Under the pieces are notes generated by a model. It saw only the letters and a program-made list of their open reading frames with translations. It had not been told where the DNA came from and made no database searches. Position numbers and translations under genes: made by a program. Positions 28,158 through 29,752 of a stretch of 47,508 bases of DNA are shown in pieces (position 1 is the first letter of the stretch; each line of letters begins with the position of its first letter). The DNA is taken from assembly GCA_000934665.2 (NCBI GenBank), contig JYFJ02000777.1, positions 62,001-109,508 of the forward strand. Reading direction: 5' to 3'. The stretch comes from Catajapyx aquilonaris (taxonomy: Eukaryota).

Positions 28158-28388
28158 ATGGAGTTAGGTCGGTTTTTTGTGGTGGCCGCTATCGCCACCA
28201 TCCTGTTGTTGGACTTGCAGTCAGTTGAAGCTGCCCCTACATCCGACGAGTCGGAGACAACCACGGCAACACCATCCCATAGTTTCGCCACCCAACGAAC
28301 CGCTGTGGTACAGATGGGCAGTGTCCAGTGTGGTCGAAACGAACGTCTGGACGCCCAGGGTCGGTGTAGAAAAATCTTTCGTGGTTAG
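28158..28388 (+). CDS. Secreted GBP-like precursor 16 (QR-TAVVQMGSVQCGRNERLDAQGRCRKIFRG*)
   Basis: Signal peptide ending VEA-AP, acidic/Thr-rich spacer, Arg site, 2-Cys core and terminal Gly. A gtaag donor follows directly after the stop. Confidence 0.88.
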   Translation: MELGRFFVVAAIATILLLDLQSVEAAPTSDESETTTATPSHSFATQRTAVVQMGSVQCGRNERLDAQGRCRKIFRG

Positions 28389-28484
28389 GTAAGAGGATTT
28401 CCCATAGTTCCTTATCAACCCTTGGTATTCCCCACTAAAAGCCTTATAAGCTCCTGTACTACTGGTATGACCACAGTCACAGCT

Positions 28485-28715
28485 ATGAATCTGCCCATTG
28501 CATGTCTTCTCCTGTGCCTCATACTGGGGTCCACGGAGGCAGACACTTTCTCGGTCAAAGACAGCAAACCAGTGGCACGTCTTACCCAAACACCTCAAGT
28601 GGGATGTCCTCGTGGGTACCGGCGTGACTATCAAGGCATCTGTCGTCGTCGTGTTTTCCGAGATGCTACGCACTTCAGACGTAAGGATGTGTTTGAGCAG
28701 GCTTATCATTCGTGA
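28485..28715 (+). CDS. Secreted GBP-like precursor 17 (CPRGYRRDYQGICRRRVF)
   Basis: TATAAG at 28445, signal peptide MNLPIACLLLCLILGSTEA, and an exact C-x2-G-x6-G-x-C-R motif. Confidence 0.88.
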   Translation: MNLPIACLLLCLILGSTEADTFSVKDSKPVARLTQTPQVGCPRGYRRDYQGICRRRVFRDATHFRRKDVFEQAYHS

Positions 28716-28822
28716 CCTCACTGACCCTGCAATGATAGTCACTTGACGGAGCTGCGCAGACTCAGGGTGACCTTTGGTGATAGCATCACGTAGCTCTCAG
28801 TGTTGGCGTTAGAGGAAAAGAT

Positions 28823-29143
28823 ATGGCAATGTTGTTTGCAAGGGTTCTGTTTGTGGTGGCGTGTGTGTGGGTGTTGATTGTTGTGGCAGCCACATTACCA
28901 GTGGTGGAGGAAGACCAGACCGAGGGTCCACAGACTGCTAATGGGACGGGGGCAATGATTAATCCGATTCTTGAGGCCCAGTGTCCTAGGGGTCAGCGTC
29001 GTGACCAGCAGGGTCGGTGCAGGAAGGTTGTTACTTTCTTGAGGTCAGCTGCAGTCCCACCCGTAGGTCAGCGACGGGTCATGTCAGGTGGCTTATGTTG
29101 TTCTCTTTTCTTTGCAGATCGGCTGGATGATCTGGTTGCCTGA
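28823..29143 (+). CDS. Secreted GBP-like precursor 18 (CPRGQRRDQQGRCRKVVTF)
   Basis: Signal peptide, acidic spacer and exact motif. Strong acceptor at 29116-29117 with candidate donors at 29044 or 29067. AATAAA at 29239. Confidence 0.88.
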   Translation: MAMLFARVLFVVACVWVLIVVAATLPVVEEDQTEGPQTANGTGAMINPILEAQCPRGQRRDQQGRCRKVVTFLRSAAVPPVGQRRVMSGGLCCSLFFADRLDDLVA

Positions 29144-29752
29144 GCCACTGACGGATCCCATGTATTGACATCAATTTTAGTGCTTATGTAGACATATTTA
29201 CACCATGCATTCGACCCATTTCATTAATTAAAATTGTAAATAAAAACTAATGGAAAAGCTAATAGTACTGAGTGTTTACAGGAAAAATCACTCATAATGT
29301 CCAACTGAAATGTGTACACCCTACGCATATTGCGTAACATTCACATGATATGGACATGCGTGCTTTTTCTCCAAAACGCACTTTCATTACGTACGTGTAC
29401 AATTCTGCTTGATTAACCAGTGATACAATTCCTCTTAAATAATCGCTGCCTGTTGCCAGAAATAAACATGACGTCACAAGTGTCACATCTCAATTAGGCT
29501 AATCCGCCATCATTATAGCCTGCTCTACATAAGACTGACCTTTGCTGGGTAGGGAGGATAGTGGGGGGTCAAGGTGGCATTCCAAGGAGCAGGATGCCGG
29601 GAAATATGACTTCTGGGAAAGACCAGTTCGACACCCAAGATCTTTCTTGTTCCGAGAAGCAGTCTGTCTGGTATTGACGTTTCACCGGTGGCGGTATAAA
29701 AGATGGAGCAATTCTGTTCGGCTGATATACTTCCAATATACTCGATCCAACC

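Follow-up and report, generated by a model that had tools for sequence, protein, structure and literature searches.

The DNA analysed here is a 47,508-nucleotide stretch of the genome of Catajapyx aquilonaris (GenBank assembly GCA_000934665.2, contig JYFJ02000777.1, positions 62,001 to 109,508 of the forward strand), hereafter the window; all coordinates are counted from its first letter. Between 12071 and 34250, the plus strand carries a same-strand array of approximately 22 units coding for short peptides with a cysteine loop, which include the tightly packed triplet of open reading frames (ORFs) that is the main subject of this analysis. ORF1 (28158-28388, plus strand) codes for a 76-amino acid precursor, ORF2 (28485-28715 as read, plus strand) for 76 amino acids as well, with an in-frame upstream ATG at 28467, and ORF3 (28823-29143, plus strand) for a precursor of 106 amino acids if it is left unspliced. 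A preliminary description of the locus had presented them as three complete GBP-like precursors, expressed either from one polycistronic mRNA or as alternative first exons spliced to a common last exon. A recount of the coordinates bore out the positions of the ORFs and the gaps between them, 96 bp for ORF1-ORF2 and 107 bp for ORF2-ORF3.

The three ORFs share the layout of GBP precursors, namely a signal-peptide-like start followed by a loop in the C-terminal part of a short precursor. Each begins with a hydrophobic segment, in which positions -3 and -1 are occupied by small residues (judged by eye), and has a 12-residue loop between two cysteines in the last third of the precursor. The loops are strongly basic: C-GRNERLDAQGR-C-R in ORF1, which ends in ...IFRG-stop, C-PRGYRRDYQGI-C-R in ORF2 and C-PRGQRRDQQGR-C-R in ORF3. 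The consensus motif given for GBP is C-x(2)-G-x(4,6)-G-x(1,2)-C-[KR] (PMC6439351). ORF2, ORF3 and the units at 23349 and 23620 match it exactly, whereas ORF1 breaks it with an Asn in the first Gly position; the GBP-like label thus suits the last two members of the triplet but not the first. Over the whole window, the exact motif is found four times on the plus strand and never on the minus strand, compared with a mean of 0.06 and a maximum of 1 in 100 dinucleotide shuffles; these loops are far beyond chance. At the DNA level, the members of the triplet align well across the loop only and all three frames are intact; ORF1, ORF2 and ORF3 read as old, diverged tandem copies.

The expression of the triplet was studied with X1, one public run of unrecorded kind available as contigs only, without per-base depth, strand, start or end calls. 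Five of the six X1 contig joints listed for 12001-32000 are GT..AG, which indicates that X1 contains spliced, RNA-derived sequence. X1 holds 0.53 of the sampled words from 28100-29300, and simple arithmetic shows that this share, together with the bin depths of 160.2 and 46.8, is explained by one single contig of 651 nt (depth 212.5, 0 differences from the window). This contig is unbroken over 28173-28680, and ORF1 (from codon 6), the 96-bp spacer and ORF2 are therefore colinear in RNA-derived sequence. At 28680 it is joined to 29118 by a GT..AG joint that skips 437 nt and has 142 letters on its shorter side, and it then continues for ~143 nt to ~29260, that is, ~16 nt beyond the AATAAA at 29239-29244. 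This end fits the use of that signal, although contigs cannot prove ends. Downstream of it lies a GT-rich stretch.

The use of the donor at 28681 makes the last 11 codons of ORF2, as read, part of an intron, so the spacing of the three precursors described earlier stands but the completeness of ORF2 as read does not. The ORF2 coding exon (28485-28680, plus strand, its 3' limit set by the GT..AG joint) comprises codons 1-65 plus one base (phase 1) and encodes the signal peptide, the propeptide and the loop. Once spliced, the frame stays open (...THFR-H-RLDDLVA-stop, stop at 29141-29143) and leaves 20 residues C-terminal of the loop. The intron (28681-29117, plus strand, 437 nt, GTAAGG...TTTGCAG) holds the ORF2 tail (28681-28715), the 107-bp spacer and ORF3 up to 29117. 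ORF3 consequently sits within an intron and is removed with it: the ORFs of the spliced RNA seen are ORF1 and ORF2, and no RNA with three ORFs was found. The putatively shared terminal exon (29118-~29260, plus strand) supplies H-RLDDLVA-stop to the spliced ORF2 and a 3' untranslated region with ATTAAA at 29227 and AATAAA at 29239-29244; it is the only terminal exon and the sole carrier of poly(A) signals in the triplet. The GT..AG joint also fixes the RNA to the plus strand and not to that of an antisense ORF (minus strand, 28221-28709, 162 amino acids). This antisense ORF spans ORF1, the spacer and ORF2, and has no Pfam family.

Within 28100-29300, GT[AG]AG donors occur only at 28389 and at 28681 (gac/GTAAGG, inside ORF2), and the only strong acceptor, defined by at least 11 pyrimidines among the 15 bases before it, lies at 29117. 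The preliminary description had correctly located this acceptor and the strong donor-like site directly after the ORF1 stop (28389-28394, plus strand, tag/GTAAGA), but the role it gave to that site as the donor to a common exon is not borne out by the contig seen, which runs through it unspliced and uses instead 28681, a donor that had been missed. Unspliced ORF3 crosses the acceptor at 29117 in the frame of the spliced ORF2 and reaches the same stop, and a weaker, putative ORF3 donor at 29044 (gag/GTCAGC) would give a 74-nt intron and an end in ...FLRSAG-stop. The frames and donor positions of both ORF1 and ORF3 are compatible with joining the exon at 29118. It was also accurate that the triplet has no AATAAA before 29239, with an ATTAAA present as well at 29227; neither spacer contains AATAAA, ATTAAA or a common variant, except for a weak ACTAAA at 28434.

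The 96-bp spacer (28389-28484, plus strand) lies within the RNA contig and is a candidate internal promoter for ORF2. It carries a kB-like motif, GAGGATTTCCC (28393-28403), a GATA site, TTATCA (28412-28417, at -73 from the ORF2 ATG), and a TATAAG (28445-28450) 28 nt before a CAGT (28472-28475). The position of the GATA site matches those of three other units of the array, F, G and H, where it lies at -71 to -73. A TCAGT is found before ORF3 at 28797-28801; the TATA at 28445 and the TCAGT at 28797 that had been reported as promoter hints are thus both present as motifs. The spacer is probably an internal promoter from which a shorter ORF2 RNA is made. The ORF1 start, accacgATGg, has A at -3 and G at +4, the strongest of the contexts. 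ORF1 and ORF2 lie in one reading frame, in which the TAG at 28386-28388 is the one stop that separates them (28059-28715) and the 32-codon spacer is open (P ~0.07). Read-through of this TAG would fuse both precursors. The only ATGs between the two starts are at 28314, in the frame of ORF1, and at 28467, in that of ORF2. ORF1 contains 0 out-of-frame ATGs, the sole such case among 17 units, but this depletion is not significant (P 0.14 in a mononucleotide shuffle and 0.36 in a codon-order shuffle).

The rest of the array provides the context of the triplet. A loose Cys-loop pattern gave 50 matches in the window, 36 on the plus strand and 14 on the minus strand. The 22 that were kept by eye are all on the plus strand and have either a CPxG/CPxC loop or a start that resembles a signal peptide; neither feature was present in the 28 that were dropped. 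These units fall into two classes, the two-Cys type with the GBP motif and a four-Cys type (CPxCxxxDxxGxCRxxxxC), and the loops of both classes align column for column, which makes them a single family. Eight of the 22 units (C, D, E, F, G, H, I and O) have an apparent stop that overlaps a phase-2 GT[AG]AG donor, so that a complete precursor is not readable from ORFs alone; for two of these units, D and I, RNA joints confirm the use of the donor. Unit D (16431-17046) is spliced from 16627 to 16711, which brings in a second loop exon (E), and from 16830 to 16890 to reach a third exon. The result is one precursor with two four-Cys loops, and an AATAAA at 17029 lies 12 nt before the end of the contig. 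Unit I (20288-24833) is spliced from 20496 to 24709 (4212 nt, GT..AG), thereby skipping the six intact units J-O, to which the dense 21094-22449 group belongs. The small exon that it reaches adds RFLG-stop, and this is the only joint seen to it. Intact downstream paralogues are therefore skipped twice, ORF3 by the joint from 28680 to 29118 and J-O by the one from 20496 to 24709, and splicing over downstream paralogues to a distant small terminal exon is a habit of the locus. On the plus strand between 20853 and 26170, 0 AATAAA or ATTAAA were found against 2.9 expected, a borderline result (P 0.054).

Several other observations concern the units of the array. A tandem segmental duplication of ~2 kb (14223-15129 and 16216-17121, spacing ~1990 nt, 78-95% identity in blocks) indicates that unit C was recently copied from the unit D gene. 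In units F, G and H, an upstream block (17148-17165, 18074-18091 and 19644-19661) contains a CRE-like ATGACGA at -83 to -86 from the ATG and a GATA site (TTATCT) at -71 to -73, and the propeptide starts with GFPQ or GFPH. With these common features, they form a recent subfamily that has a conserved promoter-like block. A Gly directly before the stop is found in A, K, ORF1, T, the spliced I and the putatively spliced ORF3 (…AKG, …GKG, …FRG, …SSG, …FLG and …SAG, respectively). A C-terminal Gly in this position is the usual signal for C-terminal amidation, and these ends hint at hormone- or toxin-like processing.

The reading that we favor, with a probability of about 0.55, is that the triplet is a nested unit in which three 5' peptide exons, derived by duplication, have one last exon in common, with an ORF1+ORF2 RNA of dicistronic format and with ORF2 probably also expressed from the TATA/Inr-like start in the spacer. 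The observations are the splice, the colinearity of the contig and its end, which is compatible with the AATAAA; to them this reading adds promoters, AUG usage and an expression of ORF3 that we infer. A 5' peptide exon comprising signal peptide, propeptide and disulfide loop would have been duplicated in tandem without a terminator, so that the single terminal exon at 29118-~29260 would serve the three ORFs and supply the poly(A) signal to all of them. Transcripts from upstream of ORF1 would pass through the 96-bp spacer and the ORF2 exon, the splice from 28680 to 29118 would remove ORF3 as an intron and polyadenylation would take place near 29260. The mature RNA would then carry a complete ORF1 and a complete spliced ORF2, dicistronic in format. 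ORF1 would be translated by ordinary scanning, since its AUG is the first one and has a strong context, while ORF2 would most likely be translated chiefly from a shorter RNA, initiated at the TATA/Inr-like pair (~28473) and spliced in the same way; leaky scanning or reinitiation on the long RNA may contribute some ORF2 as well. ORF3 would have its own start inside the intron, used under conditions not sampled, and would read into the same terminal exon.

The interpretation put forward in the preliminary description is thus partly supported. Its polycistronic idea agrees with the presence of ORF1, the spacer and ORF2 on one unbroken contig, but the ORFs concerned are two and not three, as ORF3 lies in the intron. 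Its common-last-exon idea agrees with the splicing of the ORF2 exon to 29118 over ORF3, but only one donor is seen joined.

Several points weigh against the nested unit. A contig spanning two genes is not the same as one transcript, as overlapping or read-through RNAs may merge, and the evidence comes from a single run of unrecorded kind that consists of contigs only. The 651-nt contig begins at 28173, 15 nt after the ORF1 ATG, and leaves this ATG and the 5' end uncovered. The X1 contigs of other units likewise start within their ORFs (7 nt after the ATG in unit B, 88 nt in unit I), and the start inside ORF1 would reflect an incomplete assembly of 5' ends. Moreover, 28680 is the only donor so far joined to the 29118 exon, which makes its sharing by ORF1 and ORF3 presumptive. 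The absence of AATAAA and ATTAAA over 27826-29226 is not unusual, because composition predicts 0.7. The single downstream AATAAA emphasized earlier hence carries no weight by itself, and it is the RNA contig that carries the case. The window has no excess of the kB consensus (5 found, 4.1 expected), and upstream regions do not align across the classes. Finally, 27342-28172, units J-P and the body of ORF3 are without X1 contigs, which says nothing on their expression; as evidence across ORF3 and units J-O, only the two bridging joints were used.

Several other scenarios may explain the same data. The RNA could be truly polycistronic in the manner of Bombyx, with ORF1 and ORF2 both translated from the long form through reinitiation or leaky scanning, so that an internal promoter would be unnecessary. 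One contig does carry both ORFs, which share a frame with a single TAG between them, and ORF1 is the only case in 17 units with 0 out-of-frame ATGs. The only ATGs between the starts being those at 28314 and 28467, a ribosome that passes the first AUG would meet no trap. In Bombyx, moreover, an optimal first context merely halved downstream translation (PMC2978622). Nevertheless, the ORF1 AUG has the strongest, optimal context (A at -3, G at +4), the depletion of ATGs does not reach significance (P 0.14 and 0.36), the P value for two ORFs in one frame across an open spacer is ~0.07, and the spacer holds a TATA/Inr-like pair at the right spacing. We consider this scenario unlikely. It seems decidedly unlikely that the triplet consists of three independent small genes with their own promoters, the RNA of ORF1 ending in the spacer or being spliced from 28388 to 29118 and the contig being an assembly merge, a precursor or a read-through product. 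The possible merging of contigs, the weak ACTAAA at 28434, the promoter-like motifs before ORF2 and the TCAGT before ORF3 would all be accounted for, as would the strong donor at 28389, located after the ORF1 stop where the family usually splices. Yet the contig is unbroken both at 28388/28389 and at 29118, at a depth of 212.5, and no other contig adds depth to these bins; an abundant form spliced from 28388 to 29118 would be expected to split the assembly graph. Furthermore, the ORF2 splice skips the second spacer, so the ORF2 RNA cannot end there, and the only signal-like hexamer available in the first spacer for an ORF1 end is the same weak ACTAAA at 28434.

Alternatively, ORF1 could be a decaying paralogue that now serves as the long 5' leader of the ORF2 gene, with transcription starting after its ATG. 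This would agree with the start of the contig at 28173, after the ATG at 28158, with the loss of the first motif Gly in ORF1 alone and with the lack of a clear TATA upstream of it. However, ORF1 has kept an intact frame, a good signal-peptide-like start, both cysteines and a C-terminal Gly, the X1 contigs of other units also begin inside ORFs, and a 300-nt leader with an AUG at 28314 would hinder ORF2, all of which makes such decay improbable. An operon-type precursor resolved by spliced-leader trans-splicing is extremely improbable. The common strand, the spacing of ~100 bp and the AG dinucleotides shortly before the ORF2 and ORF3 starts would be expected of it, but the contig spans the spacer and has no extra leader letters at its start, and the upstream gene has no poly(A) signal. 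In addition, the nearest named relatives of the B3GLCT-like gene that flanks the array belong mostly to insects and other arthropods, and the data looked at contain no evidence of a spliced leader.

The nested unit favored for the triplet could be extended to the whole 22-kb array. The array would then be a variable-exon cluster: ~20 5' peptide exons, each with its own promoter, would skip the copies downstream of them and join one of a small number of common terminal exons, and read-through from promoters further upstream would produce RNAs with two or more complete, co-translated precursors. Its products would be GBP-like, possibly amidated cationic peptides acting in signalling or defence. 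This extension is speculative and we regard it as doubtful.

The relationship of these peptides to known families was studied by sequence and structure. Pfam returned 0 families for the three ORFs at E <= 10, and Rfam had 0 matches in the window. Profile A1 had 0 matches among 1539 candidates, and profiles A1 and A3 were both blank against 5.8 billion proteins. PDB sequence searches with the peptides gave chance-level rows only, 0 of 518 pattern matches in metagenome contigs were confirmed, and in the ESM Atlas, where the best score was 0.78, no relative was found. The exhaustive HMMER search covered the flanking B3GLCT-like exon, as a loop of ~20 residues cannot reach significance there. Because the peptides are very short, these blank searches are weak evidence against GBP membership. 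The AlphaFold (AF2) model of ORF2 (mean pLDDT 71.7) has strands at 45-47 and 53-55, with pLDDT values of 91 and 80 there, which correspond to a predicted beta-hairpin across the loop. None of the 40 Foldseek matches to this model reached E <= 0.001. Among these 40, five were nuclear magnetic resonance structures of the ENF family, with non-significant E values of 6.5-9.4 over 16-19 columns at 35-44% identity, and most of the others were EGF domains. VIA gave 0 of 33 chains with Z >= 2, peptides under 30 residues not being aligned. The loop looks like a GBP/EGF-type hairpin and probably folds like one. The family is, in the databases searched, without detectable relatives and it is not filed here as GBP; what would connect it with GBP is the motif, in two of the three ORFs, and the precursor layout. 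Narrow word searches of the literature for GBP gene clusters or for GBP outside insects returned nothing useful.

The likeness to insect GBP/ENF peptides consists of the exact motif in ORF2 and ORF3, the C-terminal loop on a short secreted precursor and the predicted beta-hairpin, which resembles the EGF-like core (PMC6439351). The differences are that ORF1 is off-motif, that there is no Pfam or HMM match, that the structural matches are not significant and that the loops are strongly basic. Furthermore, the loop is homologous, column for column, to that of the local four-Cys class (CPxC...C...C), which is not GBP-like. The tricistronic uENF1-uENF2-ENF mRNA of Bombyx, a precedent that the preliminary description cited correctly (PMC2978622), resembles the present case in having tandem signal-peptide ORFs with a C-terminal two-Cys, two-Gly loop on one RNA, as described for uENF1-uENF2-PP (PMC2978622). 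Bombyx has a shorter, 0.6-kb PP mRNA beside the tricistronic form (PMC2978622), and by analogy a shorter RNA for the last ORF is plausible here. An intron directly follows an upstream ORF in Bombyx, just as a donor directly follows the ORF1 stop here (PMC2978622). In contrast to Bombyx, the RNA seen here has two ORFs, the third being spliced out, the first AUG has an optimal context, dual translation is a suggestion, and the genome has no close annotated relative, nor is homology to ENF precursors demonstrated. In Bombyx work, this polycistronic mRNA was reported from Lepidoptera only (PMC2978622; Kanamori et al. 2010).

Processed mRNAs with two coding regions are also present in Drosophila (PMC4528330). 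FlyBase's 'Rule-Benders' account lists 159 dicistronic pairs, 7 tricistronic and 2 tetracistronic sets (PMC4528330). According to it, ~18% of the dicistronic loci hold similar genes, probably tandem duplicates, small peptides are over-represented among them, and monocistronic alternatives usually come from a downstream promoter. Such loci being not rare, the kind is already known (PMC4528330). Unlike them, the present locus has a third paralogue nested in an intron and a terminal exon that adds coding sequence. The protocadherin and UGT1A loci have tandem 5' exons that encode most of the product, each with its own donor, and that are spliced over downstream copies to a common 3' exon. The present units differ from these in coding for tiny secreted peptides whose constant part amounts to a few codons and the 3' untranslated region, in having one donor seen per shared exon and in giving two-ORF RNAs by read-through. 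What is new is therefore the combination of dicistronic tandem paralogues with shared-terminal-exon nesting, each of a known kind, in a family without detectable relatives.

Outside the triplet, the window contains two exons of a B3GLCT-like glycosyltransferase gene with a Fringe domain (42819-45014; Pfam PF02434, E 3e-20). The best identities of the exon searched are 53-59%, without any close relative, and those of the best named relatives are only 53-58%. Relatives were named in 11 of 20 clusters (9 arthropod, 1 mollusc and 1 bird group), and in a 22-row tree the exon adjoins two Hymenoptera (SH-aLRT 88), a weak placement. Long open frames rich in Ser, Lys and Glu occupy 6311-10531 and include tandem repeats of 30 nt (7218-7314) and 21 nt (8794-8884); this Ser/Lys-rich gene (6.3-10.5 kb), which also flanks the array, has no Pfam family. 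An inverted repeat (25919-26049 and 26505-26635) has two 131-nt arms of 90% complementarity, separated by 455 nt, and contains tRNA-like sequence of the GGTTCGAATCC type. The X1 depth over 25919-26635 is very high (bin mean 620), with many contigs that have loose ends, and the element probably belongs to a dispersed repeat, SINE- or MITE-like, whose expressed copies lie elsewhere. A run of C interspersed with single N letters (39856-39886, 39873, 40640 and 46059) resembles assembly uncertainty, and 38.9-40.8 kb is rich in repeats.

If the two-ORF RNA is real and both of its ORFs are translated, the triplet would become, after that of Lepidoptera, the second instance, and an independent one, of a polycistronic mRNA that encodes GBP-like precursors. 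The locus shows how simply this organisation can be reached, in that the tandem duplication of a 5' peptide exon without a terminator results in nested units sharing one 3' exon. It also shows that in such arrays peptide calls based on ORFs are wrong at the functionally important end, owing to stops that lie inside donors (8 of 22 units); the C-terminus of ORF2 is encoded 437 nt away. Being without detectable relatives, the family may provide novel disulfide-looped peptides for signalling or defence. If the variable-exon array were true, the system would both diversify and co-regulate its peptides, and polycistronic organisation would be an old trait of GBP-type loci rather than a peculiarity of moths.

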